Source: Pyrobaculum sp. 3827-6 (lineage in GTDB: Archaea > Thermoproteota > Thermoprotei > Thermoproteales > Thermoproteaceae). Taken from it: 64,000 bases of DNA. This document shows, piece by piece, positions 959-45,238 of the stretch. A program made the position numbers and the translations under genes. Positions within the stretch are counted from its first letter, which is position 1; each line of letters begins with the position of its first letter. Location of the stretch: NCBI RefSeq assembly GCF_025641885.1, contig NZ_JAOTQN010000001.1:1200547-1264546 (forward strand), in the 5' to 3' direction. Under the pieces are notes generated by a model. That model ran no database searches, was not told where the DNA came from, and saw nothing but the letters and a program-made list of their open reading frames with translations.

Positions 959-1453
959 TTAATACAGAAAGTTGATCTTAAGAGAATCTTTAACCCAATT
1001 CAAGTATTCATATAGATTTTCGGTGAGTATCATATATGCGATTTGATCCCAATGGAACATGGCATCTCCAGGCGGGATGGTGACTATAAGCGCAGGTGCT
1101 ACAAGACCCTTTGTACACTCAATGGGCATCAACGCAAATATAAAATTAGTTTTGAAGCCTCGCCAAGGGATATCTTCCTTAATTATTGATATGCTAGATT
1201 TGTCAAAAATTTCATTGCAAAATTTATCTACTACTAGTTTCTTATCAAGAATAAAAACTAGTAGATATTCATTATTTTCCAACTTTGAAATGATATATAA
1301 CTGATATTGGGGAACATAGAAAAACTCTTCCTCTTTAGTTTGATATGAAAGAAAAAAATTAAGAGTTTTTGGCTGGATGATTTTAAATTGCATCTCTAAA
1401 GCCTTTGAATATATACTCGCCACGGGCTCTATAAGTGAGATAGGTGCGCGCAA
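959..1453 (-). CDS. Hypothetical protein, AT-rich, immediately downstream of dsrB
   Basis: 164-aa ORF in a strongly AT-rich stretch (880-1400) that contrasts with the GC-rich flanks. It overlaps the dsrB 3' end, so the true start may be the internal Met near 1393. I recognised no family. Confidence 0.35.
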   Translation of the reverse strand: MRAPISLIEPVASIYSKALEMQFKIIQPKTLNFFLSYQTKEEEFFYVPQYQLYIISKLENNEYLLVFILDKKLVVDKFCNEIFDKSSISIIKEDIPWRGFKTNFIFALMPIECTKGLVAPALIVTIPPGDAMFHWDQIAYMILTENLYEYLNWVKDSLKINFLY

Positions 1454-2516
1454 TGTCTGGCATCCACATGTACTCTGCTATAGGCCTCGGCACGCCTACT
1501 AAGTCCAGGAATTTAGCCCATCCAATCCTATCGATGAAGTCGGCTAGTCTCTCGCCTGGTTTGGCGTTCTGGCGCCATACCTCTACTACCTGCTTGACGA
1601 CAGCCACAATTTCCTCGTACCGAGGTGGGTTCGCCGGTAGCCATGGTATTAAGTTACGTGCCAGTCTTGGGCCGCCGCCTGAATTTGACATTCTACCCCC
1701 TACTAGGATAGCTACGCCAACATCTTTAGGATCGTAGTCAAATGCATCACAATTATCTTTACATCTGCCGCAGTTAATACACTTCTCACCAACCAATACT
1801 AATTTAATCTGGCCGTCTTGTCTCCTCAGAGTCAACGCACCCGTGGGACACACCTGCACTAGGAATATCTGCGACTCGGGTATTTTGGCGAGCGCCTTAG
1901 GCGGCGGCATACATAATGGTAAGACTTCTTCTCTTATTTTGGGCGGGGCTCCCCACATCCCCACAATTGCGATATCGGTGGCGGTGCCGCCGGCACACCC
2001 AGAGGGACAGCCGGAGATGAATATCCTTAGCTTGGCTGGCAACGGTATCTCGCCTGTAAAGTAAGGCTTTAAGGCGTCTCCAAGCGCTTTCCCTATACTC
2101 GGAGCGTCTACTACTCCTATCTGACATGTTAGAAATGCGGTACATGTATTTATGCCCCACATGGCACCCCTCCAGCCGCCTACTGGGAATCCCATTTTCT
2201 CCACCTCTTCCTTTATCTTTTGGGCCTTTTCTAAACTATCAGTGATGAATTCAACGTTGCCAGCTACTGTTATTCTTAATGCGCCCACGCCATATTTATC
2301 TGCAATATCTGCAAATTTTTCTAACGTATCTGCGCTTACCCTCGCATTTGGGGGCAACGCCACTTTTATTGTAAATACTCTTTCGCCCGTTTCTGAGATA
2401 TGTTCAATAATTCCGGACCCGTGGAACTTCCTCTCTTTCCATTTGCCGTAATTACGTTTTATTATCTCAGGAAGGAATCTCTCGACTTCAGTTGGGTATT
2501 TCAGCTCTATGCTCAT
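1383..2516 (-). CDS. dsrB: Dissimilatory sulfite reductase beta subunit
   Basis: 377 aa with a ferredoxin-like 4Fe-4S insert (CINCGRCKDNCDAF) and sulfite/nitrite reductase siroheme-binding Cys motifs (GCPSGCAG). It is the second gene of an AB pair and overlaps dsrA by 4 nt. Confidence 0.88.
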   Translation of the reverse strand: MSIELKYPTEVERFLPEIIKRNYGKWKERKFHGSGIIEHISETGERVFTIKVALPPNARVSADTLEKFADIADKYGVGALRITVAGNVEFITDSLEKAQKIKEEVEKMGFPVGGWRGAMWGINTCTAFLTCQIGVVDAPSIGKALGDALKPYFTGEIPLPAKLRIFISGCPSGCAGGTATDIAIVGMWGAPPKIREEVLPLCMPPPKALAKIPESQIFLVQVCPTGALTLRRQDGQIKLVLVGEKCINCGRCKDNCDAFDYDPKDVGVAILVGGRMSNSGGGPRLARNLIPWLPANPPRYEEIVAVVKQVVEVWRQNAKPGERLADFIDRIGWAKFLDLVGVPRPIAEYMWMPDIARTYLTYRARGEYIFKGFRDAI

Positions 2517-3751
2517 ACCCTCACCAACTGCTTAACTTTTTCGGCAAATTCTGCAAATTTCTTACGCTCTTCCTCTGGCAATACTCTATAGGGCACATTA
2601 TCTGGCAGTTTCTCGACGTATTTCGGCGTATCTTCTAAGCTAATACCAGCTTTTTCTATAAATCTGTATAATCCCTCCATGAGAATATAATCGCCAAGTC
2701 TATACTTTGCCTGCGCCTCCTCGTCCCACGGCTTAATTACTTTAAATGTGACATCTATTGCCTTATCAACCTCATCAGGTTTTAAGAATCCAATAAACCA
2801 GCCGAGTTTGGGGCCGTAACGCCCCTTACTACCCCCACCGACTACTACTGCTACTCTCTTTTCTTTACCTGGCTTAATAGCGGGGAACGCCGCCCTAATG
2901 CAGTGCATCGATTTTTTACACCGTGCCCCATCTATCTTGAGCTCTTTCTTAGCAGGATCCCAGCTGATTGCGCCGCTTGGACAGTTCGCCACAAGTTTCT
3001 CTGGATCTACCTCGCCGTTCTCAATCTTCTTCCTTAATAGTTCTTGATCTACCTCGGGCGCGCCTTTCCAAACACCTATAAATCCGATATCTCCTCTATT
3101 TGCCCTTGCGCAATCCATTGGACAGCCTGACAACTTTATCTTGAACTTATACGGATAGCCTGGAACGGCGGTGGCGTCATGTACACGCTTGTCTTTTCTA
3201 AACGCAACTAACCAGTTTAGTGTATCATAAAGTGCGAATTCGCACAGAGCAGGACCTACACATGCGTTTAATTCTCTAATCGCGTCGCCGCTCCCGCCGA
3301 CGTCTGTCCCTATCTCTCTGAGTGTATCAATCATTTTATCTCCCAAGTCTTTGCTCTTTACATTGATCACCATTGCACCAGTTTGCCCCACAGCTTCAAT
3401 TAAACCGACGCCATATTCCCTGGATATTTGGATAATCTTTCTAAGGTAGTCTGTAGGTAGAAATCTCCCGGGCGTGTGGAATACTCTGAAGTGAACCTCC
3501 TCCCCACCTCCTGGGACCCAGTCTCTGGCGATTCTGGCCAAGACGCCTGTAAGACGTTTTGCCTTAACGGCACTGGGGCCCCAAGGGCTTTTCCTAGCCA
3601 CTAGACCCACACCGTATACCCGCACCGGATAACCGGTCTTTTTCAACTCGCTTACATGGCTAGGCCATGGCCCTTTTTCAAGTTCAGCCAGGTATTCGTC
3701 GGCTTTTTCTAGAAGCTTTTCTGGCGGTGGTAATCCGGGTGGAGCTGCCAT
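2513..3751 (-). CDS. dsrA: Dissimilatory sulfite reductase alpha subunit
   Basis: 412 aa with Cys clusters typical of DsrA (SGCPMDCARANRGDIGFIGVW, ANCPSGA, CKKSMHC). It is upstream of and translationally coupled to dsrB. Confidence 0.88.
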   Translation of the reverse strand: MAAPPGLPPPEKLLEKADEYLAELEKGPWPSHVSELKKTGYPVRVYGVGLVARKSPWGPSAVKAKRLTGVLARIARDWVPGGGEEVHFRVFHTPGRFLPTDYLRKIIQISREYGVGLIEAVGQTGAMVINVKSKDLGDKMIDTLREIGTDVGGSGDAIRELNACVGPALCEFALYDTLNWLVAFRKDKRVHDATAVPGYPYKFKIKLSGCPMDCARANRGDIGFIGVWKGAPEVDQELLRKKIENGEVDPEKLVANCPSGAISWDPAKKELKIDGARCKKSMHCIRAAFPAIKPGKEKRVAVVVGGGSKGRYGPKLGWFIGFLKPDEVDKAIDVTFKVIKPWDEEAQAKYRLGDYILMEGLYRFIEKAGISLEDTPKYVEKLPDNVPYRVLPEEERKKFAEFAEKVKQLVRV

Positions 3752-5520: not shown

Positions 5521-5542
5521 AGATTACAAAAAAAGCGCAGTT

Positions 5543-5878: not shown

Positions 5879-5964
5879 GCCACCTCTACTTAAGAGTAGT
5901 ATAAAAGGATCATTACTCTATTTTGAGTAATTATGTAACATGAAAGAAAACTACGATCCTTCCG

Positions 5965-27083: not shown

Positions 27084-27497
27084 GTGGCCGATAGAGAGAG
27101 AGCAGAGAGAGTTCTATGGGAGTTGAGGCGGACTTTGAGGCTTATGGAACGTATGTTGGAGAGGCCAGTTGACGAGTTTGTTAATGACGACGAGGCTGTC
27201 TACGCACTTAGGTATGCAGTGGTGGAGTTTGTCGAGGCGGCGGCTCAAGTGGGTCTGCTCCTCGCGCGTAGGGCGGGGGCCAGGCCCGGTAGCTACGGCG
27301 AGGTGTTCGACGTGCTGGGCGATCTCGGGGTAATCTCAAGGGATCTAGCCGTAGCCATGAGGAAGTTTGTCTCTCTCCGAAACCTGCTGGTCCACAGGTA
27401 TTGGGAGGTGGATGATAGGCGGATGTTTACAGAGCTCAAGGAGGGGGGCGCGGCGGCTTTGAAAAAATTTATCGAGGCTGTGGAGAGGCATGTTTAG
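27084..27497 (+). CDS. HEPN-domain protein (DUF86/HepT-like)
   Basis: Rx4HxY motif LRNLLVHRYWEV near the C-terminus. 137 aa. Confidence 0.75.
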   Translation: MADRERAERVLWELRRTLRLMERMLERPVDEFVNDDEAVYALRYAVVEFVEAAAQVGLLLARRAGARPGSYGEVFDVLGDLGVISRDLAVAMRKFVSLRNLLVHRYWEVDDRRMFTELKEGGAAALKKFIEAVERHV

Positions 27498-27882
27498 GTG
27501 GTTTGAGCTGAGCGGCGAGGAGAGGCGGCGCGTGGTTGAGACTTTGAGAAGGGAGCTGGAGGGCGATGCCGGTATTGCATTCGCCTTTGTCTTTGGTAGC
27601 TTTGTCGAGGGGGGGCCTTTTAGAGATGTGGACGTCGGCATCTACTTGAGGAGATCTCTCGACGTGCTTGAGGCTTATGCATACGCGGAGGAGCTCTCGG
27701 CGAGGCTCTCCAGGGCCGTTGCTCTACCCGTCGACGTCGTTGTGCTGAACTTCGCCCCCACCTGGCTGAGGAGGAGGGCGCTGAGGGGGCTGGAGCTGTT
27801 TGTAAAAGACGAGCTTCTCTGGGCCGCCGTGTGGGCCAGCGCCGTAGACGAAGAGGAGGGCCTCAGGCTCCATACGCAATAA
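27490..27882 (+). CDS. Minimal nucleotidyltransferase (MNT/MntA-like)
   Basis: GSxxxG...DxD motif FVFGSFVEGGPFRDVDVGIY. Overlaps the preceding HEPN gene by 8 nt. Confidence 0.75.
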   Translation: MFRWFELSGEERRRVVETLRRELEGDAGIAFAFVFGSFVEGGPFRDVDVGIYLRRSLDVLEAYAYAEELSARLSRAVALPVDVVVLNFAPTWLRRRALRGLELFVKDELLWAAVWASAVDEEEGLRLHTQ

Positions 27883-28003: not shown

Positions 28004-28474
28004 CTAGTTGCCGGCTGTGTATGCACCTACAACCTTTTTCACATCTTCTACATATTGGCGGACTTTTTCCAGCTCTACCTTGAGCTCCTCGATGTCCACC
28101 ACGCCTTCGTAAAAAGCCTCTCCGTGCAGTATTTTATATCTAGCCATGTATCTATCTCTCAAGCCTAGATCCCTGACAACGGGGTGTCTCTTCTCCAGCT
28201 CTCTTAACATTACCCTCCTCTCGTAGTGGCTCATTGGCATCTTCCCCGCCAGCGCCAGTATCAACGCGTTTGTAGCCTGCACCACCGCGTTGCACGCCTT
28301 CTCGGCGGCGTCTCTCACCAAGATTCTATCCCCCTTAACCACAGCCTCGCCGAACTCCCCCTCCGCGGCCCGCGCGAAAGCCTCAGCGTCTTCAATCAGC
28401 TCCTTAACCCTGCCTGCAACGCCCAATTGCACGCCACATTCCCACTTCAGGTATATAATCTCACCGCTCCTCAA
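28004..28474 (-). CDS. Helical protein, PaREP1-related or HEPN-like
   Basis: 156 aa with DAAEKACNAVVQATNALILALAG resembling the PaREP1 core, and a C-terminal RYKILHGE (Rx4H). Confidence 0.35.
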   Translation of the reverse strand: MRSGEIIYLKWECGVQLGVAGRVKELIEDAEAFARAAEGEFGEAVVKGDRILVRDAAEKACNAVVQATNALILALAGKMPMSHYERRVMLRELEKRHPVVRDLGLRDRYMARYKILHGEAFYEGVVDIEELKVELEKVRQYVEDVKKVVGAYTAGN

Positions 28475-28632: not shown

Positions 28633-29046
28633 GTGGATATGAGGGAGGAGGCTCTTGTCTGGTTTAGAGAGACCGTGAAGGGCTGCCTAACGGCGAAGAT
28701 GTTGCTTGAGGCTGGTGTTTTCCACTCACGTGCATTTTTCTCCCACCAGGCGGCGGAAAAGGCTTTGAAGTCTCTTTTCTTCGTGCTGGCTAGGAAAGAG
28801 CCGCCTAAGCGGCACAACCTCCTAGAGCTGTACAGAGAGCTAAGGCGATACGGAGTGGAGCTCTCCCCCCAGCTAGTGGAGGGCCTCGCCGTGGTGACGA
28901 AGTACTACGCCACGTCCCGCTACCCAGACGCCGCGGGAGGCCCTCCCTCTGAGCTCTTCACGAAGAGAGAGGCTGAATACGCCCTTGAGGTTGCGAGAGA
29001 GTTGATAAGGCTGGCGTCCCTGACTTATGGAGAGGAGGGTTGCTGA
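28633..29046 (+). CDS. HEPN-domain protein (classical HEPN)
   Basis: SHQAAEKALKSLFFVL...PKRHNLLELY matches the HEPN PF05168-type core. Confidence 0.75.
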   Translation: MDMREEALVWFRETVKGCLTAKMLLEAGVFHSRAFFSHQAAEKALKSLFFVLARKEPPKRHNLLELYRELRRYGVELSPQLVEGLAVVTKYYATSRYPDAAGGPPSELFTKREAEYALEVARELIRLASLTYGEEGC

Positions 29047-29347
29047 CGTCGTTCAGAAATTTGTGGAGGAGCTGAGGAGGGAGGGCATCGAGGTTGTGGC
29101 AGTCTACCTCTTCGGCTCCTGGGCGCGGGGGGACTGGCTGGTCGACAGCGACGTGGACTTGGTAATTGTGTCACCCCACTTCAGAGGCGTGCCCTGGCTC
29201 AAGAGGCTGGAGATGCTGGCTAGGATAGAGGCGCGGCTCGACCTTCCGTTGAGTCTAGACGTGTTGCCCTACACGCCGGAGGAGTTGGAAAAGGTCAAAT
29301 CCGCCGTCTTAAGAGACGCCTCCCGTTACTGGAGGCGTGTAGTATAG
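29027..29347 (+). CDS. Minimal nucleotidyltransferase (MNT)
   Basis: VYLFGSWARGDWLVDSDVDLVIV is the GSxxRG...DxD NTase motif. Overlaps the preceding HEPN gene. Confidence 0.8.
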   Translation: MERRVADVVQKFVEELRREGIEVVAVYLFGSWARGDWLVDSDVDLVIVSPHFRGVPWLKRLEMLARIEARLDLPLSLDVLPYTPEELEKVKSAVLRDASRYWRRVV

Positions 29348-29454: not shown

Positions 29455-31350
29455 CTAGCCTAGGACCGCCTCTCCTATCTTTTCGAAGCGGTAGTTGAGC
29501 CTCCACACCATTCTCCAGCCTACGAGGTACACGCCGTCCTCGGTGAAGAAGGCTCTTTCTGCTGGGAGGTCCAGATCTGCCTTAACTGCGAGCCCCCTTC
29601 CCACCTCGATGAAGAGAGTTCTAAGCCTCCCGTAATGGCCGACGTATGGTATGAAGGCTAGCCTCGTGGAGGGGTCGTAGGCAAAGGCGTGGTGGTCTTG
29701 GAAAACGGGAGGGTAGGCACCGGCTATTGTGATGTTAGACATCTCGCGCGGCGCCGCCGGGTTAGACACGTCGAATAGGGCGATTTTGACGCCGCGCCCG
29801 TGGAGGCCCACCCCTAGCAACAGCCCCTCCCCCACCGGGTGGAGGTATTCCGAGAAGCCCGGGGTCTTGAGGTAGCCGAGCACCCTCGGCCTAGCCGGGT
29901 CGGCCAAGTCGACGGCGTAGAGGGGGTCAACCTGTCTAAAGGTTATTAGGTACATCACGTTCCCCACCAGCCTCGCCGCGTATATCCTCTCCCCCGGCGC
30001 CAGGCCCTCGACAGAGCCCACAAGCCTCCCCCCTTTGTCGAAGACGTAGACGGCGTTTACCGGCTCGCCCTCTGTGATGTAGAGGCGGGGCTCGGGGGGA
30101 CATCTGACGACCACCCTCGCCGGCGTCCGGGTTATGTCTATGACGGGGCACCCCACCGCCCGCCACACATACCCCACGTGGAAGCGGATGGGAGACGCCG
30201 TGGTGGCCACGGCAAAGCCGCCGTCAAACTCCTCTACTGCAAACTGGTCTAGCACCTTCCCAGGCGCCTCGGCCACCGCCTTCAACCTCAGGTGGGGCCC
30301 CTCGCCTTCAAATACATAGATCCTAGTGGCCGTGGTGATATTCGCCCTATTCAAGATGTGGACGACGTCTGTGCCGTTCTTCAGTAGCTCCATTATGGAG
30401 AGGTATAGGAGGAGTGGGTTCGTTCTGTCCAGCCTCTTCTTGACGTCGTCTGGCAGGTGGCCCCACGTGGCGTTGACCGCCTTGGCCAGGTAGTCCGGCA
30501 GGGCGAGGGGGGTGATTACGTATAGGCGGTTGCCCCTCATGTAGACCCTGGGCGTGGAGCCGGCGACGTAGACAGAGGCGTTGAATTGGAGACTTCTCAA
30601 ATCCACCCCGGCGATCACCAGCACCGCGGGCGGCGCTCCGAGGGCGAGCACCGGGGCCTCCTCGACGACGCGGCCGTTGATCTCCACCTTGGCGGGGGAC
30701 TGGGCGACTATGTACACCGCGCCGTCGCTCATCCTCGCCGCCGCCGGCCAGCCCGACAGATTGAACACAGCGAGGCGGGAGCCACTCCCAAGATCGTACA
30801 CGTAGAGGACTGTGTAGCCCCTCGTCTCTCCATACACCAGCGCCCTCCCGCCCCAGACAAATACGTGGCACCCCAGCCCTGGGCACTCCAACGTCTTCAC
30901 CACACGCGGAGTCTTATCCACCACGTAGAGCCTCCACCCCGCCGCCACGTATAGATACTCCCCGTCGAACTTCACATAGTCCTCCTCGTCGACGCCCCAC
31001 ACCTGGACGTTGGCCGCCGACGCCGATTTAAACACGCCAGCCGCCGCAGGCGCGGCGGTTGTTAGATAAACTGCGCGTAGATCAGCCATTATAAAGTCGC
31101 CTTGTTGCAACAGCTCCAGAGCGGCGAGTTTAACAACTGGTAGCCTCGGCGAGGCAGTTGTCTCCGCCGCACCCCCATCGACGTGTATCTTAACTGCGAG
31201 AAGGAGTGCCAGCGCCAGTATAGTCAGCGCCAGAGCCGCAAGCTGGCGAAGCACGGAAATACACCCCTCTCGGCTTATATCCCTAATGTACTGGGAGTAC
31301 ATCCCGAGCGGCTGGGCGTTAAACAATTTGCACAAAGCCTGGAAAAACAT
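29455..31350 (-). CDS. Secreted/membrane-anchored beta-propeller domain protein
   Basis: 631 aa with an N-terminal hydrophobic anchor (LAALALTILALALLLAV), then repeated beta-strand-rich units consistent with archaeal beta-propeller proteins. Confidence 0.55.
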   Translation of the reverse strand: MFFQALCKLFNAQPLGMYSQYIRDISREGCISVLRQLAALALTILALALLLAVKIHVDGGAAETTASPRLPVVKLAALELLQQGDFIMADLRAVYLTTAAPAAAGVFKSASAANVQVWGVDEEDYVKFDGEYLYVAAGWRLYVVDKTPRVVKTLECPGLGCHVFVWGGRALVYGETRGYTVLYVYDLGSGSRLAVFNLSGWPAAARMSDGAVYIVAQSPAKVEINGRVVEEAPVLALGAPPAVLVIAGVDLRSLQFNASVYVAGSTPRVYMRGNRLYVITPLALPDYLAKAVNATWGHLPDDVKKRLDRTNPLLLYLSIMELLKNGTDVVHILNRANITTATRIYVFEGEGPHLRLKAVAEAPGKVLDQFAVEEFDGGFAVATTASPIRFHVGYVWRAVGCPVIDITRTPARVVVRCPPEPRLYITEGEPVNAVYVFDKGGRLVGSVEGLAPGERIYAARLVGNVMYLITFRQVDPLYAVDLADPARPRVLGYLKTPGFSEYLHPVGEGLLLGVGLHGRGVKIALFDVSNPAAPREMSNITIAGAYPPVFQDHHAFAYDPSTRLAFIPYVGHYGRLRTLFIEVGRGLAVKADLDLPAERAFFTEDGVYLVGWRMVWRLNYRFEKIGEAVLG

Positions 31351-31457
31351 AGTGAAGTCTCTTACCCAGCTATAGTGCTGGCTTCTCCGATGATAATATA
31401 TTCTCTTATTTTATCTACAATAGAGTTTATGAATACTTATGTAGCATATTTAAAGAG

Positions 31458-32525
31458 TTGTTTGTTGTGTTTCATATGGTGTTTGCAAAAAACCCGATAG
31501 ATCGCCTCCGTGAACGCGGTTTTGATGTCGGCGACGTGGGGGATGCCCTACGTCTTGCTATTATAGCTGAGCTAGACGCCATCAGCCTGTATCTACAGCT
31601 CGCTAGATATGCAGAAGACGAGAGGGTGCGCAGAGTTTTTCAAGACGTGGCAAACGAGGAGAGGACGCACTTCGGCGAATTCCTCGCCCTCCTCAAGGAG
31701 TACGACCCCCAGCTAGCCGGGGAGCTGGAGGCGGGGGCGAAGGAGGTGCGGGAGCTGGCTGGCGTGGGGGCCGGCGAGGGTAGAGATCCGCCTAGCAACG
31801 GCAGATGGATCAGCCAGCTGGCTAAACAGGTGGCCGACGCCGCCGCCGCGGCGAGGCGGTTTAGGAAAGTGCTCGCTACCTACAACGTGGGACGCGGCGC
31901 CGAGGCTGTGGCCTTTGAAGTGCTGACGAGGGAGGGCAAAGCCGAGAGGAGGATCACGCCATTGAGGGAGCTGAAAATTAGGTTCACCGTGTCGCAACAA
32001 CAAGTCGACCTCGCGCTGTCCAGGGGGGCACCTGTGGAATCTGTCGAGGCTGATAAGGCCGCCGTCAAGCTGGCATATGAAGAAGACGCCGCGGTGCTCG
32101 GCGATCTTCTTAAAAGCGGAGATGTTGTAGAGATTTCCAGCTGGGACAGGCCGGGGTCTGCTGTGCAGGAGGTGGCTAAGGCAGTGGCTGAGTTGTACAG
32201 GAGATACGTCCCCGAGCCCTATGTCCTGTTCGTAAGCCCCGGGAGGTTCGCAAAGCTGGTAGCTGTAGAGGAAAAGACGGGGGTTATGGAGCTCACACGG
32301 GTAAAGACCTTGGTGAGGGACGTGGTGGCGTTGCCACAGCTCAGCGACGACGACGCCCTGCTCATGTCTGTACACCCCTCCGTGGCCGACATAGCTGTGG
32401 GTGTCGACGCCGAGGTCATATACCTAGGCCCGGAGGAGGGGGGACACGGCTTTCTACTACGCGAGACCTTCGCCGTGAGGGTGAAGAACCCCGCCGGCGT
32501 CTTGGCGCTACGGGTAGGTGGGTAG
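31458..32525 (+). CDS. Family-1 encapsulin shell protein with N-terminally fused ferritin-like (Flp) cargo domain
   Basis: The N-terminal ~100 aa carry a ferritin-like/rubrerythrin di-iron signature (DALRLAIIAELDAISLYLQLARYAEDERVRRVFQDVANEERTHFGEFLALL). The C-terminus matches encapsulin (Linocin M18) ends (GVMELTRVKTLVRDVVALP...GHGFLLRETFAVRVKNPAGVLALRV). This is the same architecture as the Pyrococcus furiosus virus-like-particle protein. Confidence 0.7.
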   Translation: MFVVFHMVFAKNPIDRLRERGFDVGDVGDALRLAIIAELDAISLYLQLARYAEDERVRRVFQDVANEERTHFGEFLALLKEYDPQLAGELEAGAKEVRELAGVGAGEGRDPPSNGRWISQLAKQVADAAAAARRFRKVLATYNVGRGAEAVAFEVLTREGKAERRITPLRELKIRFTVSQQQVDLALSRGAPVESVEADKAAVKLAYEEDAAVLGDLLKSGDVVEISSWDRPGSAVQEVAKAVAELYRRYVPEPYVLFVSPGRFAKLVAVEEKTGVMELTRVKTLVRDVVALPQLSDDDALLMSVHPSVADIAVGVDAEVIYLGPEEGGHGFLLRETFAVRVKNPAGVLALRVGG

Positions 32526-32566
32526 TTTTTCTCTAAACTTTATAGGTATGTAGTTACTACATACCT

Positions 32567-33649
32567 ATGTTGTTTAGAGACAGGCCTGCGGAGCGGCTGG
32601 AGGAGCTTTTCGACAGAGAGAGGGAGGTGAGGCGGCTGGTGGAGGCGTTGGGCGGCAGGGCTCTTACCCTGGTGCTGGGGATGAGGCGGGTGGGGAAGAC
32701 TTCGGTGGTTAAGGCGGCGACTTACGGCCGCCTGCGGGTGTACATAGACGCGAGGGTGTTCGAGGAGAGGCCCTACATATCCTACGACGACTTTCTAAAC
32801 GCGCTGAGGGACGAGCTTAGGCGGCTCCTGCCTCTGCACAAGAGGCTGGCTGAGCTCGTGGCGAGGGTCAGGGGTGTATCCGTGGCCGGCGTAGATGTTA
32901 GATTCGATGTGGGGCGGAACGCGCCGCGGCTCGCCGAGTTGCTGGAGGCTTTTGACCAGTGGGCTGGGGAGAGGGGGGAGAGACTGATCTTCATAATCGA
33001 CGAGGCGCAGGAGCTGGTTAAGCTCAGGGGCAGGACTCTGCTCCCGGCGCTGGGCTACGCCTACGACCACCTCCGCAACGTTGCGATGGTGTTCACAGGC
33101 TCCAAAGCCGGGCTGTTGCTGAGGTTTCTCCGGCTGGAGGACCCCCACAGCCCCCTCTTCGGGAGGTACGCCGAGAGGATTGACATCGGCCCCTTTCCGC
33201 CGGAGCTCTCGGCGAGGTTTCTAGAGGAGGGGTTTAGACAGGCGGGGGCGGAGATCGGGAGGGACCTCGTCGAGAGGGCAGTGGAGCTCCTCGACGGGGT
33301 GGTGGGCTGGCTGGCGTACTTCGGCCTCAGAGCCTTGAAAAGCCCCGGGACGGCGCTTGACGAGACTGTGGAGTACGCCAAGAGGCTGGCGGCATCGGAG
33401 TTCTGCCACTTCGTCCAGTACACAGGATCGCGGAGGTACATCCACGTGGCTAAGATCTGCAGACAAGGCGCCAGGTGGTCCGACGTGAAGCGCTACCTCA
33501 CCGCCGCGGAGGGCCGGGAGGTCTCAGACCCCGAGGTCACCAAGTTGCTCACCAACCTGGTGAACTACGGCTTCTTGGAGAAAAGAGGCGATTTATACGT
33601 AGTGGCGGACCCCGCCCTCAGGCTGGCCCTGGGGGATCTGCGTTGCTAG
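32567..33649 (+). CDS. Archaeal ATPase (AAA+ superfamily, Arch_ATPase/DUF234-type with C-terminal wHTH)
   Basis: FDREREVRRLVEAL...LVLGMRRVGKTSVV (Walker A) and IFIIDEAQEL (Walker B). 360 aa. Confidence 0.75.
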   Translation: MLFRDRPAERLEELFDREREVRRLVEALGGRALTLVLGMRRVGKTSVVKAATYGRLRVYIDARVFEERPYISYDDFLNALRDELRRLLPLHKRLAELVARVRGVSVAGVDVRFDVGRNAPRLAELLEAFDQWAGERGERLIFIIDEAQELVKLRGRTLLPALGYAYDHLRNVAMVFTGSKAGLLLRFLRLEDPHSPLFGRYAERIDIGPFPPELSARFLEEGFRQAGAEIGRDLVERAVELLDGVVGWLAYFGLRALKSPGTALDETVEYAKRLAASEFCHFVQYTGSRRYIHVAKICRQGARWSDVKRYLTAAEGREVSDPEVTKLLTNLVNYGFLEKRGDLYVVADPALRLALGDLRC

Positions 33650-34512
33650 CGCTCCCCCTTTAGGATGTGCTGGAGGTGGCTAAGCAACTCCATGGGCACT
33701 ACGATCTTCGTCGACGGGGAGGAGGCCATGTTCTTAAGCGCCTCTAGGTACTGGAGCAACAGGGCGTTCGGCCCCAGCTTAGAGGCGGCTTCGTTAAGCA
33801 GTTCAAGCGCCTTCGCCTGGCCCTCTGCTCTGAGGATAGCCGCCTGGCGCTCCCCCTCCGCCTGGAGGATGGCGGACTGCTTCTGACCCTCCGCCCTCAG
33901 AATCGCGGCTTGCTTCTCGCCGTCTGCCTGGGCGATCATAGCCCTCCTCTCCCTCTCGGCGGCTATCTGCTTCACCATCGCCGACTGCACCGTCGACGGC
34001 GGGATGATCTCCCTAATCTCCACCGCAGTCACCTTCACCCCCCACCTCGCCGTGACCTCGTCCAGCTTAGCCCTGAGCACGGAGTTGATGTACTCCCTCT
34101 TGGCGAGGACCTCGTCCAGCTCTATGTCGCCCACAACGGCTCTAAGCGTCGTCGTGGCTATCCCCACGGCCGCCTGCTTAAAATTCTGCACCTGTGTGAT
34201 AACCTTCTCCGGGTCCACCACCTTTAGGTATATGAGGAGGTCGATGTCCACCGGCGCGTTGTCCTTAGTGATGCACGTCTGCTTCGTCACGTCGATGACC
34301 TGCTCCCTGAGATCCACGGGGTAGGCCTGGTCGACGACGGGGATGAGGAACACCAGACCAGGCCCCCTCAGCCCGACGAGGCGCCCGAGGCGGAAGACCA
34401 CCAGCCTCATAAACTCCGGCACCACGCGTATGGAGGTGGCGAGGACGGCGATCACGACGACGGCAGTCAACAGCGCCGCGATGCCCCAGACAATCTCCGC
34501 CTGCAGTAGCAT
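33646..34512 (-). CDS. SPFH/band-7 (stomatin/prohibitin-like) protein
   Basis: N-terminal TM helix, SPFH core (VVFRLGRLVGLRGPGLVFLIPVVD...) and a C-terminal AAILRAEGQ repeat coiled coil. Confidence 0.85.
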   Translation of the reverse strand: MLLQAEIVWGIAALLTAVVVIAVLATSIRVVPEFMRLVVFRLGRLVGLRGPGLVFLIPVVDQAYPVDLREQVIDVTKQTCITKDNAPVDIDLLIYLKVVDPEKVITQVQNFKQAAVGIATTTLRAVVGDIELDEVLAKREYINSVLRAKLDEVTARWGVKVTAVEIREIIPPSTVQSAMVKQIAAERERRAMIAQADGEKQAAILRAEGQKQSAILQAEGERQAAILRAEGQAKALELLNEAASKLGPNALLLQYLEALKNMASSPSTKIVVPMELLSHLQHILKGER

Positions 34513-34518
34513 ATTGAG

Positions 34519-35766
34519 CTATTTCACCACTTTTTTAACTTTAAGGGTGAGGCCCTCCACCTCCACCACAACCACCTCCGCCCCCCTCTCCACGGCCTCG
34601 TCAGACACAGCCGTCCACTCCTCCCCGGCCACGTACACAACCCCCGGCTGCCCCGGCCCTATCTCCGTCTTGGCCACCCCCCTCGCCCCCATCAGCTGGC
34701 TACGGTAGTCCAGAGGACGCCTCTTCAAAGCCTGCCTCACCTTGTACCCCACGTACGCCACAGCCACCGCCCCAACCGCGGCTAGGCCCGCCGCGGCGTA
34801 TGACGCCCCCTGGGACTGGTAGTAGGGCTGGCCGCTCCCCGCGAAGTACAGCGAAAGGGCAAAGAGGGCCAGGCCCGAGGCGGCCAGGGCCCCGTGGCCG
34901 GCCACCATCTCCCCCACGATAAGCGCCGCGCCGGCCAGGGCGAGGAGAAGAGAGAGGAGGTCGGCCCCCAGCTGGCCCACGAGGTAGAGGGCCAGGGCGA
35001 GGAGAACGCCGCCCACCACGCCCACCCCCTGGAACCCCGCGGCCACCAGCTCGTAGCCGATGAGCACGACACCCAGCAGGATCATAAGCGAGATGAGGGC
35101 CGGGTCCGACAGGGCGTTGAGCAACCTCGCCAGCGGGTCCCGCCTGTACACAGCCGCGAAGCTCCAGCCCTCGGGAGGCGGCGGCTCGGCGATGCCGAGC
35201 TTCACGGCCTCCGCGCCGGTGAGCACCCTGTTCTGCCTCACAAATGACTCCGCGACGTCGACGCGGGAGTCGTTCCACTTGGCGGAGGCCAGGGACCTCA
35301 TCCTAGCCGCGGCGTAGTTCACCACCTTCGGGTCCGGGGGCCTGGGCTCCGCCGCGCCTATCTCAGCCGTCGGCGCCATGTAGATGCGCTTAGCCGCCAT
35401 GGCTATGAAGGCGCCCGCCGACACCGCCTTGGCCCCCTCCGGCACGTAGGCGTACACCGGCACCCCGGCGTTTAGAAACATCTCCACGATCTGGTCCATG
35501 GGGCCGAGGAACCCCCCGTAGGTGTCCAACACCACCACGAGAGGCACCCCGAGCCTCTCCGCCTCAGCCAGCGCGGACCTAGCCAGCGACGCCGCCGTGC
35601 CGTCCACAGTCCCGTCGAGGTAGAGGGCCACCGCCGCCCCCCCGGCCGCCGCGTGCGCCGCGAGGAGGAGAAGCAACCCCAGCCACCTGCCCACGCCCCC
35701 ATCAACAAACAGTTTTAAAAATTGAGGCGCCCAGCACCCCGTGGCCAAGGAGGCGAAGAAGGCCAT
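34519..35766 (-). CDS. NfeD-like membrane-bound serine protease (stomatin operon partner)
   Basis: ClpP-class protease domain (LVVVLDTYGGFLGPMDQIV), central TM helices and a C-terminal OB-fold segment (GVAKTEIGPGQPGVVYVAGEEWTAV). Immediately upstream of the stomatin gene. Confidence 0.75.
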   Translation of the reverse strand: MAFFASLATGCWAPQFLKLFVDGGVGRWLGLLLLLAAHAAAGGAAVALYLDGTVDGTAASLARSALAEAERLGVPLVVVLDTYGGFLGPMDQIVEMFLNAGVPVYAYVPEGAKAVSAGAFIAMAAKRIYMAPTAEIGAAEPRPPDPKVVNYAAARMRSLASAKWNDSRVDVAESFVRQNRVLTGAEAVKLGIAEPPPPEGWSFAAVYRRDPLARLLNALSDPALISLMILLGVVLIGYELVAAGFQGVGVVGGVLLALALYLVGQLGADLLSLLLALAGAALIVGEMVAGHGALAASGLALFALSLYFAGSGQPYYQSQGASYAAAGLAAVGAVAVAYVGYKVRQALKRRPLDYRSQLMGARGVAKTEIGPGQPGVVYVAGEEWTAVSDEAVERGAEVVVVEVEGLTLKVKKVVK

Positions 35767-38283
35767 CAGGGAGAGGATATGGAGGCTAATGGAGGAGAGA
35801 GGCGTCGCCGCCTTCCCCCGCCCCGTCTACGGCAGAATCCCCAACTTCAAAGGCGCTGAGAAGGCCTGCCAAAACCTAGCCCACCTAGACATATTCGCCA
35901 AGGCCGCCGTTGTTAAGATAAACCCCGACGCCCCCCAGAGGCCCTGCCGCGAGGCGGCGATGCACGCCGGCAAGAAGGTGGTGATGCCCACACCCCGCAT
36001 CCGCGAGGGCCTCCTACTCCTAGACCCAGCCCAAATCCCCAAAGCCGCGTACAGAGAGGCATCCACCATCGCCGGCGCCTTTAAATGGGGCAAGCCCGTC
36101 AAGCCCTGGGACCTCCCACCGGTAGACCTCGTGGTGATAGGCTCGGTAGCCGTAAACCCCAGAGACGGGAGGAGGCTCGGAACCTTCGCATATAATCTCG
36201 CTGGGCTCACAACTGGACCAATAGCCTAAGGCCTCCTCTTTTTCCAAGCTTCACAGATTCCCAATTACATGACTCTGACAAAGCGCTCTGTTGGTAAGGA
36301 TTTTGGTTTGTATTTCTTCGCCTAAAGATCTAAGTAGGTAATAATCGCCGATGGAAAGATTTCCGTCTTCTAAAACGACTATTCATAAATTTAAAAATAT
36401 TACATTGTATATGGGCAATTTAGGTATAGATGGCCTATGGCATAAGGACGCGATCAATTGTGCTGAAGAGTGGAGAAGTTACCTTAGCGAATCCTGCGAT
36501 GATCTCATTACAAAGCTAAGGCAAGCCCTAATGCAGGTTCCTAGAGTTATCAGCCGGGGGAAAAGAACCTTGTTTGATTATGGCGATGTAAAGATATCTA
36601 CAGATGGAAAGGTCACTATACTAAAAGTAAAAGGTCAGAATGAGTTAGCAACAAAGCTTAAGAAATTAAAAGGTACTGCAAATATCTCCTCGGATTTCAA
36701 ATATTCATACCTGCTTGGATGGCTTGCTTCAGATGCCTATATTGAGGATATTTATGTCAAAGTCGGCACTACGCAATTTTGGCAATTATCGAAATTAACT
36801 AAATTATTTAATCTAATAAATATTAGAATAAAAGGCTTTAGCCTCACTAAAAAGGGACTGAAACCAATTGTAGAGATATACTGGCGCCTTGACACAAGCT
36901 GGTGGAATGTCACAGTACGGGAAGCGGTATCAGCTCTAAATTCAAATCCACTAATACAAAGGGCTATTAGTGCTATAAACAGCAGGTTAGATGTAAGCAA
37001 CTTTCTCTCTGATTGGAATAGAAGAGCTAGAAGATATGTTTCAGCCTCACTACTTAACAAAAGCGAAAGAGATTTCGGCGCCTTCATGTTGGGATTAATA
37101 GAAGGCGACGGCCACGTAAATGAAAAATACAGTTACGTCTCTATTACCATTGGCGATGAAAAATTGGCAATAATACTAGTAGCGCTTATGTGGAAATTCG
37201 GGTTTACCCCAAGAATATATAGACGTAGAAGATACTACTTGCTTAATATTTATAAACGACAACTTCGCAAACTCGTGACAATCATACCCCCAGAATTGCT
37301 TACAGATTCACCCAAAGCTGAAAATTAGTAAAAATCGGAAGCTTTAAATGGAGCTTCTCTGTGAGAAAAACCAGCACTTCAATAAACGTGATTACATCGC
37401 CTAAAAACCAATTCCAAACTTATCTAACTGTTGAAAAGCTAAAAGAAATAGGCCTAACAGAAAAAATACACTTTACATTTGCAGTGCCATCCCCCCACAA
37501 GAGCGGACGTGTTACTATAAAACACGAAGGATTAAGATACCTAGCATATCTAGCATACCGAAAAAATAACAAAAAAGCACAGAACTTATTAACATATTTA
37601 AAAGAACAAGCACATAAAACTTCTGCTTACCACGCCATAAACAAAATAATTGAAGAGGGACAGCGGTATTCATCAAGAGACCTACCCGAGGACATTACAG
37701 CCGAAGCGCTGATAGATGGGAATAAGTTGCGCATCAATATAAAGCCTCATAACCTCACCATCACGTTCAGAATAGAGAGAAAAAACACCATCGTTGGAGA
37801 GGCGCCAGCCAGAAAGGCAGTGGAAGAGAGGAAACACATCTTAGAAAAGCTACTAGGTAGAAACGTACCAATTAAGCAACATTCCTTTAAGCTAAGCGGC
37901 GGCGATTTCCGGAGGCTACTTGAATACAAACAACTCTTCGACACAATGTATAAGTGGTACATAAACACCCCCTTTTTTCCACACATGAACACGGCTACGC
38001 CGAGCTCGAGTGGGGCATCCTCTCAGCCCTGGGGAAGGTAGGCGAGGACACGCCGGTAGCCACCACGGTACACGACGTGCAACTGGTTGACGACGAGATC
38101 CCTCGCGAGCCCTTCGACCTGCCGGTAGACGTCGTGGCCACCCCAACCCGCGTCATACACACCAAGAGAGTAGACAAGAAGCCCCACGGAATCCTCTGGC
38201 AATACATCACCAAAGAAACGCTCGCGGAAATCCCACTCCTCGCCGAGCTAAAAGAAAAACTCGCAACAAGCCGCACGTCATGA
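35741..38283 (+). CDS. 5-formyltetrahydrofolate cyclo-ligase (MTHFS) gene interrupted by a ~1.8-kb insertion. Exon-like parts are 35741..~36184 and ~37984..38283, in different frames.
   Basis: The N-terminal ORF ends ...DLVVIGSVAVNPRDGRRLG then degenerates. The C-terminal ORF resumes ...HEHGYAELEWGILSALGKVGEDTPVATTVHDVQLVDDEIPREPFDLPVDVVATPTRVIHT, which reads as the GxGxYD and PxxxxDxxVDxxxTP motifs of MTHFS. The parts are separated by 1.8 kb and the frames are 35741 mod 3 = 2 versus 37954 mod 3 = 1. Confidence 0.65.
36185..37983 (+). mobile_element. AT-rich insertion (candidate mobile intron or inserted element) carrying a LAGLIDADG endonuclease ORF
   Basis: Sharp compositional drop from ~60% GC to AT-rich exactly between the two halves of the MTHFS gene. 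It contains two ORFs in the host-gene orientation. Confidence 0.6.
36351..37328 (+). CDS. LAGLIDADG-family homing endonuclease (two-motif, single chain)
   Basis: Two LAGLIDADG-like motifs about 125 aa apart: YSYLLGWLASDAYIE and GAFMLGLIEGDGHVNE. 325 aa. AT-rich codon usage unlike the host. Confidence 0.7.
   Translation: MERFPSSKTTIHKFKNITLYMGNLGIDGLWHKDAINCAEEWRSYLSESCDDLITKLRQALMQVPRVISRGKRTLFDYGDVKISTDGKVTILKVKGQNELATKLKKLKGTANISSDFKYSYLLGWLASDAYIEDIYVKVGTTQFWQLSKLTKLFNLINIRIKGFSLTKKGLKPIVEIYWRLDTSWWNVTVREAVSALNSNPLIQRAISAINSRLDVSNFLSDWNRRARRYVSASLLNKSERDFGAFMLGLIEGDGHVNEKYSYVSITIGDEKLAIILVALMWKFGFTPRIYRRRRYYLLNIYKRQLRKLVTIIPPELLTDSPKAEN
37361..38041 (+). CDS. Hypothetical protein encoded inside the insertion
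   Basis: 226-aa AT-rich ORF that reads through into MTHFS exon 2 out of frame. No recognised family. Confidence 0.35.
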   Translation: MRKTSTSINVITSPKNQFQTYLTVEKLKEIGLTEKIHFTFAVPSPHKSGRVTIKHEGLRYLAYLAYRKNNKKAQNLLTYLKEQAHKTSAYHAINKIIEEGQRYSSRDLPEDITAEALIDGNKLRINIKPHNLTITFRIERKNTIVGEAPARKAVEERKHILEKLLGRNVPIKQHSFKLSGGDFRRLLEYKQLFDTMYKWYINTPFFPHMNTATPSSSGASSQPWGR

Positions 38284-38370: not shown

Positions 38371-38832
38371 GTGGCAGTCACCATATCTCCCCCCGTGGCC
38401 GAGGTGCTGAAAAAAGCGGCAGGAGATAAAGATCTGGAGGAGTTCCTACTCACACTAGTCGCAGAGCGGCTCGATCCGCCAGAGCGCGTCGAGGCTTACC
38501 TCAAGCTTCATGAGAAGTTTTTGAGGGAGGCTGAGGAGCTGTATCAAAAGGGCGACTTGGTGCAGGCTGGTGAGAAGTACTGGGGCGCCGTAGCCGCTTT
38601 GCTAAACGCATTGGCGGAGAAGCGGGGCTGGGAGCACCACAGCCACAGAGACTACGCAGTCGCGGTAGAGAGGCTGTACGAAGAGACAAGAGACAGAGAG
38701 CTGGTGGTGGGGTTTAGAATGGCCGAGGGCCTCCACGCAAACTACTACCACAACTTCATGAGAAGAGAGGGGTTTGAACTGCACAGAGAGGCCGTATTGA
38801 AGCTTGTGGAGAAGCTGAAGAAATTCCTATAA
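38371..38832 (+). CDS. PaREP1-family protein
   Basis: GEKYWGAVAALLNALAEKRGWEHHSHRDYAVAVERLYEE...MAEGLHANYYHNFM is paralogous to 14066..14551. Confidence 0.65.
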   Translation: MAVTISPPVAEVLKKAAGDKDLEEFLLTLVAERLDPPERVEAYLKLHEKFLREAEELYQKGDLVQAGEKYWGAVAALLNALAEKRGWEHHSHRDYAVAVERLYEETRDRELVVGFRMAEGLHANYYHNFMRREGFELHREAVLKLVEKLKKFL

Positions 38833-38889: not shown

Positions 38890-39570
38890 ATGTATATAGA
38901 CTTGACGATGGAGCTGGGCCCCGACACGCCTGTCTTCCTCGGCTACCCCAAGCCGGCTTTCATCCAGTGGTCCAAGATAGACCTCCACGGCTACTACTCC
39001 CGCGTGATGTACACGCCAGAGCACTCAGCCACACACGTCGACTCCCCCGCCCACTTCGTGCCGGGGGCGAGGACAGTGGACCAGATACCCCCCGAGAAGT
39101 TCATCGGCGCCTTCGTCGCACTCGACTTCTCCGACCTGCCCCCCAGAGGCCAGATAACGCTGAGGGCATTCGAGGCCAGACTCCCCCGCGGCGCCGACCT
39201 CGGCCCCGGCGCCGTGGTCCTCCTCCGGACGGGGTACGACGCCTACGCCGGGACAGACCGCTGGCTGGAGCACCCCGACATATCGCCAGAGCTGGCTGAG
39301 CACCTAGCCAAGCTAGGCATAAACGCCGTGGGGACAGACGCCCCCTCCCCAGACCACGCCCCCTTCGAAATACACAAAATACTCCTCGCGAGGGAGGTTT
39401 TGATATACGAAAACCTCACAAACCTCGCCGCCGTCGTCGGCAAGAGAGGCCGCTTCTACGGCCTACCCCTAGTGCTATCCCCACACCCCATCTTCATTTT
39501 TCCTGACTCGACGTCGGATGTTTTTCCTGATTCAGGAAGATTGTCTGATTTTAACTCAGGTAAAATGTAG
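38890..39570 (+). CDS. Cyclase-family protein (arylformamidase/kynurenine formamidase-like); C-terminus fused into IS hairpin sequence
   Basis: PF04199-like motifs (HSATHVDSPAHF, LLRTGYD, GTDAPSPD). The last ~28 codons (PHPIFIFPDSTSDVFPDSGRLSDFNSGKM) are encoded by the IS terminal hairpin repeat. Confidence 0.7.
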   Translation: MYIDLTMELGPDTPVFLGYPKPAFIQWSKIDLHGYYSRVMYTPEHSATHVDSPAHFVPGARTVDQIPPEKFIGAFVALDFSDLPPRGQITLRAFEARLPRGADLGPGAVVLLRTGYDAYAGTDRWLEHPDISPELAEHLAKLGINAVGTDAPSPDHAPFEIHKILLAREVLIYENLTNLAAVVGKRGRFYGLPLVLSPHPIFIFPDSTSDVFPDSGRLSDFNSGKM

Positions 39571-40716
39571 ATGGGAGGGTTGAAAGTCGTGTTGGGAAAA
39601 AAGGGGGATTATTTCCCGGTACCTCTTCTGTGCCCAATGTATCGGCACATCGTCACGGTTGGCCTCAAAGCCGCACTGACATTTCACCCTTCTGTTCGGA
39701 AGCTCCTCCATCTTTGCTCCGCATCTGGGGCAAATGGTGGAGTACAGCCTCAGCTCTGCGTAGGGCACCCCGTACCACTCGGCAAGCTCCCTCAGCCTCT
39801 TCACAAGCCTCCCCACATTGAGATACTTCTTGACGTTTGACTTTACCCTATCGCCTTTCTTCAGCCCCCGTATAGATTCGTCTATGGGCTCGTCCACTAC
39901 GACGGCGGCTTTGTACTGCATAGCGAGCTTCACGATCTTCTTTGCCGCCTCTATTGTCCATTGCCTCCACAGCCGCCAGAGGCGGCTCTTGGCCTCTGTT
40001 GCCTTTTTGCAGTAGGCGCCGCCTTTTGTGGTACATAGGGAGTCCAGCCTGGCGATCTCCCTCTCCAAGCGGCCGATGCGGCCGAGATCAGGCCTCAAGA
40101 TGCCCTTCTGCAACACCTTATCTTCCTCTATGGTGGCTATCACTATGCCGTTGTGGAGGGCGTTGACGTCGACTACGAGAAGCCTCTTGGGCTGGTATGG
40201 CGTAATTTCTCTGTGGAACACAAGCACCACGTTGAAAGTGGCGATGTTGCTGTCCCGCCGCCTGCCTACCCACGCCAGGGCGAATTTCAGCTGGGCGCTC
40301 TCCTTCACCCTTTCTTCAATCCACTTGATCTCAGACTTCCTCAGCTTAATCACGATGGTGTTGCCTCTCTCGCCGCTCCACTTCCTGATTCTAACCTCCC
40401 TCTCTGACAGATCTACAAGGACGCCGCGGCTGTTGTCGCCCGCGTTTTTATCAAGCCTCAGCTCTGCGTTGAAAGGAAGCGGCACCCTCCACACGCCATT
40501 CTTAAGCCCATTCGCGGGCAAGAGCTTCAACGCATGTTTCAACTCAGTGGCGAAGTACTTCAGTGGATTCTGCTGTGGGAGCGGTGCTTTGAATCCGCTC
40601 TTGTACCACTCCGTTGCCCACTCCTGGAACTTCTGTTGCACCTCTAGGAATTTGGTCAGCTGATGCGGCGGTATTTCTTCCACTCTCCTCTTTATTACCA
40701 GCGTTCGGTAGCCCAT
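39556..40716 (-). CDS. tnpB: TnpB (IS605 OrfB) RNA-guided nuclease-like transposon protein
   Basis: 386 aa with a RuvC-like split nuclease domain and a C-terminal zinc finger CPRCG...CQCG, which is typical TnpB architecture. Confidence 0.85.
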   Translation of the reverse strand: MGYRTLVIKRRVEEIPPHQLTKFLEVQQKFQEWATEWYKSGFKAPLPQQNPLKYFATELKHALKLLPANGLKNGVWRVPLPFNAELRLDKNAGDNSRGVLVDLSEREVRIRKWSGERGNTIVIKLRKSEIKWIEERVKESAQLKFALAWVGRRRDSNIATFNVVLVFHREITPYQPKRLLVVDVNALHNGIVIATIEEDKVLQKGILRPDLGRIGRLEREIARLDSLCTTKGGAYCKKATEAKSRLWRLWRQWTIEAAKKIVKLAMQYKAAVVVDEPIDESIRGLKKGDRVKSNVKKYLNVGRLVKRLRELAEWYGVPYAELRLYSTICPRCGAKMEELPNRRVKCQCGFEANRDDVPIHWAQKRYREIIPLFSQHDFQPSHLHFT

Positions 40717-45207: not shown

Positions 45208-45238
45208 AAATGAAAGCAAAACCGCCCCTCATATACAT

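Follow-up and report, generated by a model that had tools for sequence, protein, structure and literature searches.

Introduction

Encapsulins with a fused ferritin-like (Flp) domain are exclusively archaeal and mostly crenarchaeal, form T=3 shells with the Flp domains inside, and are often adjoined by ferritin-like or rubrerythrin genes (Andreas and Giessen 2021, PMC8346489). In encapsulated ferritin (EncFtn) the published ferroxidase centre consists of Glu32, Glu62 and His65 with Tyr39 nearby, and the archaeal variant carries the motif DxxxEExA/TH (PMC11202242). Here we examine a gene of this class at 31476..32525 on the forward strand of a 64,000-nucleotide stretch of Pyrobaculum sp. 3827-6 (contig NZ_JAOTQN010000001.1, positions 1,200,547 to 1,264,546), which we call the window, together with the genes around it: a beta-propeller protein gene upstream, and an ATPase gene and an NfeD-stomatin pair downstream. 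We conclude that, very probably, the gene encodes a canonical Flp-fusion encapsulin with a predicted role in iron storage, and its neighbours are separate units kept close to it by inherited gene order.

The closest described system is the Pyrococcus furiosus protein PfV/PF1192, represented in the Protein Data Bank (PDB) by its shell (2E0Z) and its EncFtn domain (5N5E). The window protein shares with it the full-length two-domain architecture, the ferroxidase residues, the DxxxEExT/AH motif and the fold. The two belong to different phyla (Euryarchaeota versus Thermoproteales), and their shells have diverged to a Foldseek sequence identity of about 24% over the modelled shell. For the Pyrobaculum protein, T number and activity are extrapolated from homology.

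The two-gene EncFtn and encapsulin systems of bacteria (Rhodospirillum rubrum, Thermotoga maritima, and EncA/B/C of Myxococcus xanthus) have the same ferroxidase chemistry and shell family, and even the numbering of the bacterial EncFtn residues, E32, Y39, E62 and H65, is the same as in the window protein. However, the bacterial cargo is a separate protein loaded via a C-terminal targeting peptide, whereas in the window the cargo domain is covalently fused N-terminal of the shell. Other crenarchaeal Flp-fusion encapsulins, such as that of Saccharolobus solfataricus, fall in the same class as the window protein. Unlike the context noted in the census of these proteins (PMC8346489), no ferritin-like or rubrerythrin gene was seen beside the window encapsulin.

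Results and discussion

An Flp-fusion encapsulin of the Pyrococcus furiosus type

An earlier note, made from the letters of the sequence, had read the open reading frame (ORF) listed at 31458..32525 as an EncFtn-encapsulin fusion of the P. furiosus type, and on this point Pfam, NCBIfam, the structures 2E0Z and 5N5E, the catalytic residues and Foldseek all agree with it. The motifs that it quoted, EERTHFGEFLALL and the C-terminal LLRETFAVRVKNPAGVLALRV, are both found in the ORF, which is a single uninterrupted frame. The profile search proposed in that note places Linocin_M18 (PF04454, E 3.4e-29) on the C-terminal part, at aa 118-339 and profile positions 19-253 of 253, and puts Pfam matches to Rubrerythrin, EncFtn-like and Ferritin families N-terminal of it at aa 29-91; the NCBIfam models EncB_fam and ferrit_encaps match the N-terminus as well. 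The P. furiosus virus-like particle protein 2E0Z aligns to the encapsulin end to end (aa 12-351, E 1.1e-48), and the first ~100 residues align to 5N5E, a crystal structure of the EncFtn domain from P. furiosus (E 5.8e-24). The domain matches of the ORFs described here have E-values between 1e-29 and 1e-212, so that their identities are not a matter of chance.

The protein is thus divided into an EncFtn domain (aa 1-91, 31476..31748, matched by 5N5E), a flexible linker GVGAGEGRDPPSNGRW (aa 92-107, 31749..31796) and a shell domain of the HK97 fold (aa 108-349, 31797..32525 with the stop codon, delimited by Linocin_M18, AlphaFold and Foldseek), all on the forward strand. In an alignment of 23 homologues with 43-64% identity, E32, Y39, D57, E61, E62 and H65 (numbering of the 349-aa protein) are invariant. 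The EncFtn motif is present in its archaeal fusion form, DxxxEExA/TH, as D57-V-A-N-E61-E62-R-T64-H65.

An AlphaFold2 model made from the same 23-homologue alignment has a mean predicted local distance difference test (pLDDT) score of 85. The shell domain lies mostly above 90, residues 92-107 are disordered with values below 50, and the EncFtn part contains helices at 18-45, 49-76 and 78-95. When this model was searched against the PDB with Foldseek, all 50 of the 50 best-ranked matches were encapsulin shells or engineered encapsulin cages. The top matches (9FY6, 8RVJ, 2E0Z, 6NJ8 and the M. xanthus EncA entries) have E-values of 1e-18 to 1e-20 and target-normalised template modelling (TM) scores of 0.83-0.86. 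A non-encapsulin fold of the C-terminal half, which the earlier note had named as the outcome that would speak against its reading, is therefore not borne out by this confidently modelled domain. The protein combines the HK97-fold shell domain, the fused N-terminal EncFtn domain, and the ferroxidase residues and motif by which Flp-fusion family 1 encapsulins are recognised.

None of this makes the protein unusual. Its best database match is an annotated 349-aa 'encapsulin [Pyrobaculum ferrireducens]' with 98% identity, and on the P. ferrireducens chromosome (CP003098, our contig L081) the genes are laid out as in the window, with 94-99% amino-acid identity, which marks the window as DNA of a closely related, P. 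ferrireducens-like strain. We found 161 homologues, all with both Pfam domains, spanning Thermoproteales, Desulfurococcales, Sulfolobales, Korarchaeota and others, and many of them already carry the name 'family 1 encapsulin nanocompartment shell protein'. Across Thermoproteales, Desulfurococcales and Sulfolobales the class is represented by homologues of 40-62% identity; in this range the closest named relative is the P. neutrophilum encapsulin (61%), for which a gene-record look-up of the context came back empty. A literature search joining encapsulin and Pyrobaculum gave no match. The window encapsulin is a standard, already annotated member of the known archaeal Flp-fusion family 1 class.

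Start codon and transcription signals

As listed, the ORF opens with TTG at 31458 on the forward strand. This codon lies between a TATA-like box ATTTAAAG (31447..31454), read from the sequence and kept in P. ferrireducens, and an ATG at 31476. The ATG is the most likely start, giving a protein of 349 aa, because the TTG falls inside the presumptive promoter and because the 98%-identical P. ferrireducens protein is annotated as 349 aa. The centre of the TATA-like box is ~25 bp upstream of this ATG; by standard archaeal promoter geometry the box would serve as the promoter of the gene, and the spacing therefore implies a leaderless transcript.

Directly past the stop codon is a T5 run (32526..32530, forward strand), which is T7 in P. 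ferrireducens and probably serves to terminate transcription, as such runs do in archaea. The TATA box, the leaderless ATG and this T-run together give the encapsulin gene the look of a transcription unit of one gene.

Proposed working of the compartment

We propose that the 349-aa chain, with its EncFtn domain, ~16-residue flexible linker and HK97-fold shell domain, would self-assemble into an icosahedral shell as its P. furiosus homologue does, probably with T=3 and 180 subunits. The EncFtn domains would face the lumen and pair, so that di-iron ferroxidase centres form at the interface from E32, E62 and H65 with Y39 nearby. Hypothetically, Fe(II) comes in via pores in the shell and is oxidised at these centres, and the ferric mineral is laid down in the lumen, which would provide both iron storage and detoxification. 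P. ferrireducens is an iron-reducing hyperthermophile, and an Fe(II)-buffering compartment is plausible in such an organism.

The gene neighbourhood in other genomes

The earlier note had also suggested that the clustering of the encapsulin gene with an ATPase gene and an NfeD-stomatin pair may be a meaningful context, and had itself held that a neighbourhood not conserved across relatives would make the clustering incidental. A scan of one genome per species, with P. neutrophilum, P. islandicum and T. tenax outside it, covered at least 80 loci, among them 45 fused-encapsulin loci from other species. A tblastn search with the window ATPase, stomatin, NfeD and beta-propeller proteins found no homologue in the flanks of the 80 loci (E <= 1e-3). 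Accordingly, none of the 45 fused-encapsulin loci, 38 of which have at least 1.5 kb of sequence downstream and 25 at least 5 kb on both sides, is flanked by a homologue of any of the four. The encapsulin contexts in other Pyrobaculum, in a Thermoproteus sp. and in P. calidifontis differ from that of the window and from each other.

Conversely, orthologues of the ATPase occur with no encapsulin nearby in Thermoproteus uzoniensis (80% identity), in a Thermoproteus sp. (64%) whose own encapsulin lies ~83 kb away, and in two metagenome contigs (63-67%). The gene order of the block recurs only in a narrow Pyrobaculum-like clade.

A slot that is often empty

Within this clade the block could be followed further, with the conserved ATPase promoter sequence as a probe on the metagenomes of the Joint Genome Institute (JGI), which yielded 38 further contigs. 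Nineteen contigs, the window included, span the region from the start of the beta-propeller gene to the start of the ATPase gene. The encapsulin slot is intact in five of the 19, namely the window, L081 and L123, which are one species, and L094 and L130, which carry the 62% type. It holds a broken gene in three (L090, L091, L102) and is empty in 11 (L099, L100, L101, L103, L104, L112, L113, L115, L117, L129, L131). Where the encapsulin is broken or absent, the neighbours of the slot are intact. Contigs rather than evolutionary events are counted here, because related metagenome contigs are not independent.

The pseudogenes themselves (L090:6188-7083, L091:4415-5310 and L102:6639-7612) have several frame breaks, lack the N-terminus and sit in the same slot.

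The arrangement of the neighbours varies with lineage. L094 and L095, whose encapsulin is 62% identical to that of the window, have the order beta-propeller (-), a 228-aa gene (-), encapsulin (+), a HepT/MNT pair (-), ATPase (+) and 5-formyltetrahydrofolate (5-FTHF) cyclo-ligase (+). L090 and L091 have stomatin (-), NfeD (-), beta-propeller (-), a 219-aa gene and the four frame segments of a broken encapsulin, followed by a toxin-antitoxin pair and the ATPase and 5-FTHF cyclo-ligase genes. In most relatives the NfeD-stomatin pair lies beyond the beta-propeller gene, and the cyclo-ligase gene follows the ATPase by 8-24 bp. The closest non-conspecific relative, L103 (ATPase 75% and beta-propeller 61% identical), has no encapsulin; a 248-aa membrane-protein gene occupies the slot, and a truncated NfeD gene with no stomatin lies between the ATPase and cyclo-ligase genes.

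We interpret the clustering as residual synteny in one clade, with the encapsulin as the dispensable element, and the 41-bp spacing between the encapsulin and ATPase genes in the window as the outcome of a loss of small intervening genes in this lineage. The clustering is incidental because the slot is often empty or broken with its neighbours intact and because co-occurrence is absent elsewhere. The repeated loss or pseudogenisation of the encapsulin at a fixed slot in one Pyrobaculum-like clade suggests that the compartment is dispensable in some hot-spring populations. The special context proposed for the gene is thus not upheld, and what is left is one more annotated member of the archaeal Flp-fusion encapsulins.

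The putative promoter of the ATPase gene

The ATPase gene has a putative promoter of its own at 32539..32566 on the forward strand, made up of a TATA box, TTTATA (32539-32544), and a palindrome (32544-32566). The palindrome is perfect over 23 bp (11+1+11), AGGTATGTAGT-T-ACTACATACCT or AGGTATGTAGTTACTACATACCT as a whole; it abuts the TATA box and ends at the ATPase ATG. The idea of a palindrome regulon was set aside, since the window has no second copy. It stands directly upstream of every ATPase orthologue examined, irrespective of the upstream gene. TATA box and palindrome are kept in 48 contigs (the window, L081 and L088-L133), and with a probe that permitted all 16 combinations at the four variable positions, the variants found in these contigs were all symmetric (GG..CC in 45, CC..GG in 3).

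The TATA box is centred ~25 bp before the ATG, and the palindrome would span about -23 to -1 of a leaderless promoter, which is the classic position of an archaeal repressor. We hypothesize that the palindrome is likely a repressor or autoregulation operator, and that the ATPase's own winged helix binds it is a reasonable guess. The ATPase gene reads as an autonomous unit with its own conserved promoter and putative operator. The T5 run past the encapsulin stop, the TATA box and palindrome before the ATPase ATG, and the location of the NfeD-stomatin pair on the opposite strand argue for separate transcription units.

Alternative readings of the block

Some observations weigh against a canonical encapsulin among unrelated neighbours. 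The NCBIfam model encap_f1 scores 99.5 bits on the encapsulin, just below its cut-off of 100, and the assembly state, T number and ferroxidase activity are all taken over from homologues. The metagenome contigs are phylogenetically non-independent, which is why the loss counts are not event counts. The gap between the encapsulin and ATPase genes is only 41 bp on the same strand, so that read-through transcription is conceivable on sequence alone. In several lineages, moreover, all six gene families are still found within ~8 kb of each other after a local rearrangement. Weak selection for proximity could in principle be the cause of this ~8-kb block.

One alternative is that encapsulin, ATPase and NfeD-stomatin are one module, in which, for example, the ATPase regulates or loads the compartment and stomatin and NfeD anchor or process it at the membrane. 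The short same-strand gap and the identical arrangement in P. ferrireducens are what it would predict, as is a second lineage in which stomatin, NfeD, beta-propeller, encapsulin and ATPase remain within ~8 kb despite rearrangement. However, the comparative data largely refute it, and we regard it as improbable: there is no co-occurrence at the 45 other fused-encapsulin loci; 11 contigs lack the encapsulin, and three have a decayed copy, inside an otherwise intact block; ATPase orthologues of 63-80% identity are found in unrelated contexts, everywhere with their own conserved promoter and putative operator; an opposite-strand HepT/MNT toxin-antitoxin pair parts the encapsulin from the ATPase in the other lineage with an intact encapsulin; and the position of NfeD-stomatin shifts relative to the other genes. 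The check across relatives that the earlier note had proposed for the encapsulin-ATPase pairing therefore goes against it.

A narrower version is confined to the P. ferrireducens lineage, where loss of the separating genes may have created a new read-through unit, in which the winged-helix ATPase, seemingly autoregulated via its palindrome, would be co-expressed with the compartment and perhaps modulate it. On a broader view, the recurrent block of beta-propeller, NfeD-stomatin, encapsulin and ATPase genes might be a clade-specific envelope or iron-handling island. We consider this version slightly less probable still than the module as a whole.

It is a little more doubtful again that the window encapsulin is itself on its way to loss and non-functional like the broken copies of related contigs. 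The broken copies in L090, L091 and L102 and the empty slots in 11 contigs belong to the same clade, but the window reading frame is intact, the protein is 98-99% identical to the undisrupted copies in L081 and L123, all invariant family residues are kept, and a promoter-like TATA box is present.

We reject as most improbable of all the idea that the HK97-fold gene and the ClpP-like N-domain of NfeD are the capsid and prohead protease of an integrated virus. In its favour one could cite the HK97 fold of the shell, the nearby toxin-antitoxin pairs and LAGLIDADG insert, and a weak match of the NfeD N-domain to the model 'head maturation protease, ClpP-related' (E 0.0013; it scores 18.7 bits where the cut-off is 120). 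Against it stand the fused EncFtn domain with its intact ferroxidase residues, the grouping of the protein with family 1 encapsulins of cells, the complete NfeD1b domain set and stomatin partner of NfeD, the absence of terminase, portal or integrase among the precomputed Pfam matches of genes called within the 21-kb surroundings of the encapsulin, and the lack of a PADLOC match for the encapsulin and of a match for the LAGLIDADG protein in phage and archaeal-virus records. The canonical iron-storage encapsulin beside separate units remains the reading that we prefer.

Neighbouring genes

The labels given to the neighbours in the earlier note (an archaeal AAA ATPase, a convergent NfeD-stomatin operon and a secreted beta-propeller protein) were confirmed by Pfam in all but one detail. 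The ATPase gene (32567..33649, forward strand) encodes an ATPase_2 domain (PF01637, 53.3 bits, cut-off 33.2) followed at the C-terminus by a winged helix of the MCM_C type (PF21100, 47 bits, cut-off 27), with Walker A GMRRVGKTS and Walker B IIDEAQ read off the translation. The further qualification 'DUF234-type' is unsupported, because the Pfam matches with E <= 0.01 do not include PF03008; what the C-terminal part does match is the MCM_C winged helix.

With its P-loop domain, both Walker motifs and winged helix the protein belongs to the archaeal ATPase_2 family. Its PDB matches, 2FNA from S. solfataricus (E 9e-77) and 2QEN (E 7e-51), come from structural genomics and are uncharacterised; with both it shares full-length similarity, Walker motifs and the C-terminal winged helix. 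The conserved palindrome between TATA box and start codon is a feature of the orthologue group of the window ATPase and may set it apart from these two. A literature search on PF01637 found nothing relevant. The palindrome offers a simple handle on possible autoregulation in this family, which is structurally solved and uncharacterised. A defence role was considered and rejected: in PADLOC the ATPase gives only marginal P-loop matches (E 2.7e-05 and 0.003), with no stretch passing alone, and the other proteins give none.

In the metagenome contigs L096 (2043-2601), L106, L111 and L122 the ATPase gene is missing, and the palindrome precedes the 5-FTHF cyclo-ligase gene by ~95 bp. This suggests that the ATPase may have been deleted in these contigs and its promoter left driving the cyclo-ligase gene.

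The stomatin/SPFH gene (Band_7, E 2.1e-39; 33646..34512, reverse strand) is convergent with the ATPase gene, the two 3' ends overlapping by 4 bp, and its orthologues in related contigs are 88-91% identical. It is the second gene of an operon whose first gene, NfeD (34519..35766, reverse strand), lies 6 bp upstream on the same strand and encodes an NfeD1b membrane protease with the Pfam domains NfeD1b_N, NfeD_membrane and NfeD. Its N-domain is ClpP-like, and a membrane domain and an OB domain follow towards the C-terminus. The N-domain aligns to PH1510-N of Pyrococcus horikoshii (2DEO, E 4e-13), with the catalytic-dyad Ser and Lys aligned, at what we take to be their positions in PH1510-N.

Adjacent NfeD1b and Band_7 genes on one strand are the hallmark of operons of the PH1510/PH1511 type. 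The P. horikoshii pair, PH1510 (NfeD protease) and PH1511 (stomatin), has the same NfeD-then-stomatin order on one strand, with a 6-bp gap, and the same NfeD1b domain set, and the Ser and Lys positions are kept in the N-domain alignment to 2DEO/3BPP. We see no notable difference between the two, and the window pair is a neighbour of the encapsulin system that lies outside it.

The beta-propeller gene (PF09826, E 6.3e-86; 29455..31350, reverse strand) is divergent from the encapsulin gene and encodes a protein with an N-terminal hydrophobic anchor or signal; its syntenic orthologues are 44-61% identical. The starts annotated in P. ferrireducens correspond to 35748 for NfeD and ~31254 for the beta-propeller gene. 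In their longest ORFs, NfeD (-) and the 5-FTHF cyclo-ligase (+) share 26 bp in a head-to-head overlap (35741-35766), and with the P. ferrireducens start of NfeD, six codons later, an overlap of ~8 bp is still left. On these coordinates the divergent promoters of the two genes must presumably be very compact or lie within coding sequence.

Other features of the window

The 5-FTHF cyclo-ligase-like gene (35741-38283) is split at an RRLG|KS|HGY motif by a 1.8-kb insert (~36182-37989), which has 41% G+C, is single-copy and codes for a LAGLIDADG_3 protein. The same insert is present in P. ferrireducens (L081) and L123, and uninterrupted cyclo-ligase alleles are found in L090, L094 and L103. An intein was ruled out, as the reading frame is broken by stop codons; for an archaeal intron, a strict bulge-helix-bulge scan was empty and a relaxed scan gave only weak, unconvincing candidates. 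The insert thus appears to be no intein and no archaeal intron of the canonical kind, which makes it a LAGLIDADG-encoding insert that splits a protein-coding gene with the features of neither.

The LAGLIDADG protein had no match in the PDB or among phage or archaeal-virus records. In P. ferrireducens it is encoded by one 525-aa frame (L081:14938-16515); in the window (36351-38041) it is divided into ORFs of 325 aa and 226 aa in different frames, and the break between 37328 and 37361 would stem from a mutation that shifted the frame or from an error in sequencing.

A TnpB-like ORF at 39556..40716 on the reverse strand has a Cas12f1-like/TnpB TNB zinc-ribbon domain (E 1.3e-07) and overlaps the 3' end of a cyclase gene (38890..39570). 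We read it as a strain-specific insertion of the IS200/605 type, because it is missing at that position in the P. ferrireducens reference (L081). The flanks of the block also hold two HEPN-nucleotidyltransferase (MNT) toxin-antitoxin-like pairs (27084..27882 and 28633..29347) and PaREP1 family genes (28004..28474, a weak match, and 38371..38832), which are typical variable-island content.

Scans of the whole window for tRNA genes and with Rfam found no RNA gene. Two stretches of low G+C content, 1-6000 and 44000-48000, have 43-47% as against ~58-60% elsewhere in the window. The first contains a pyridine-nucleotide disulphide oxidoreductase gene and, at 1383..3751, NIR_SIR genes that resemble dissimilatory sulfite reductase; the second contains glycosyltransferases.

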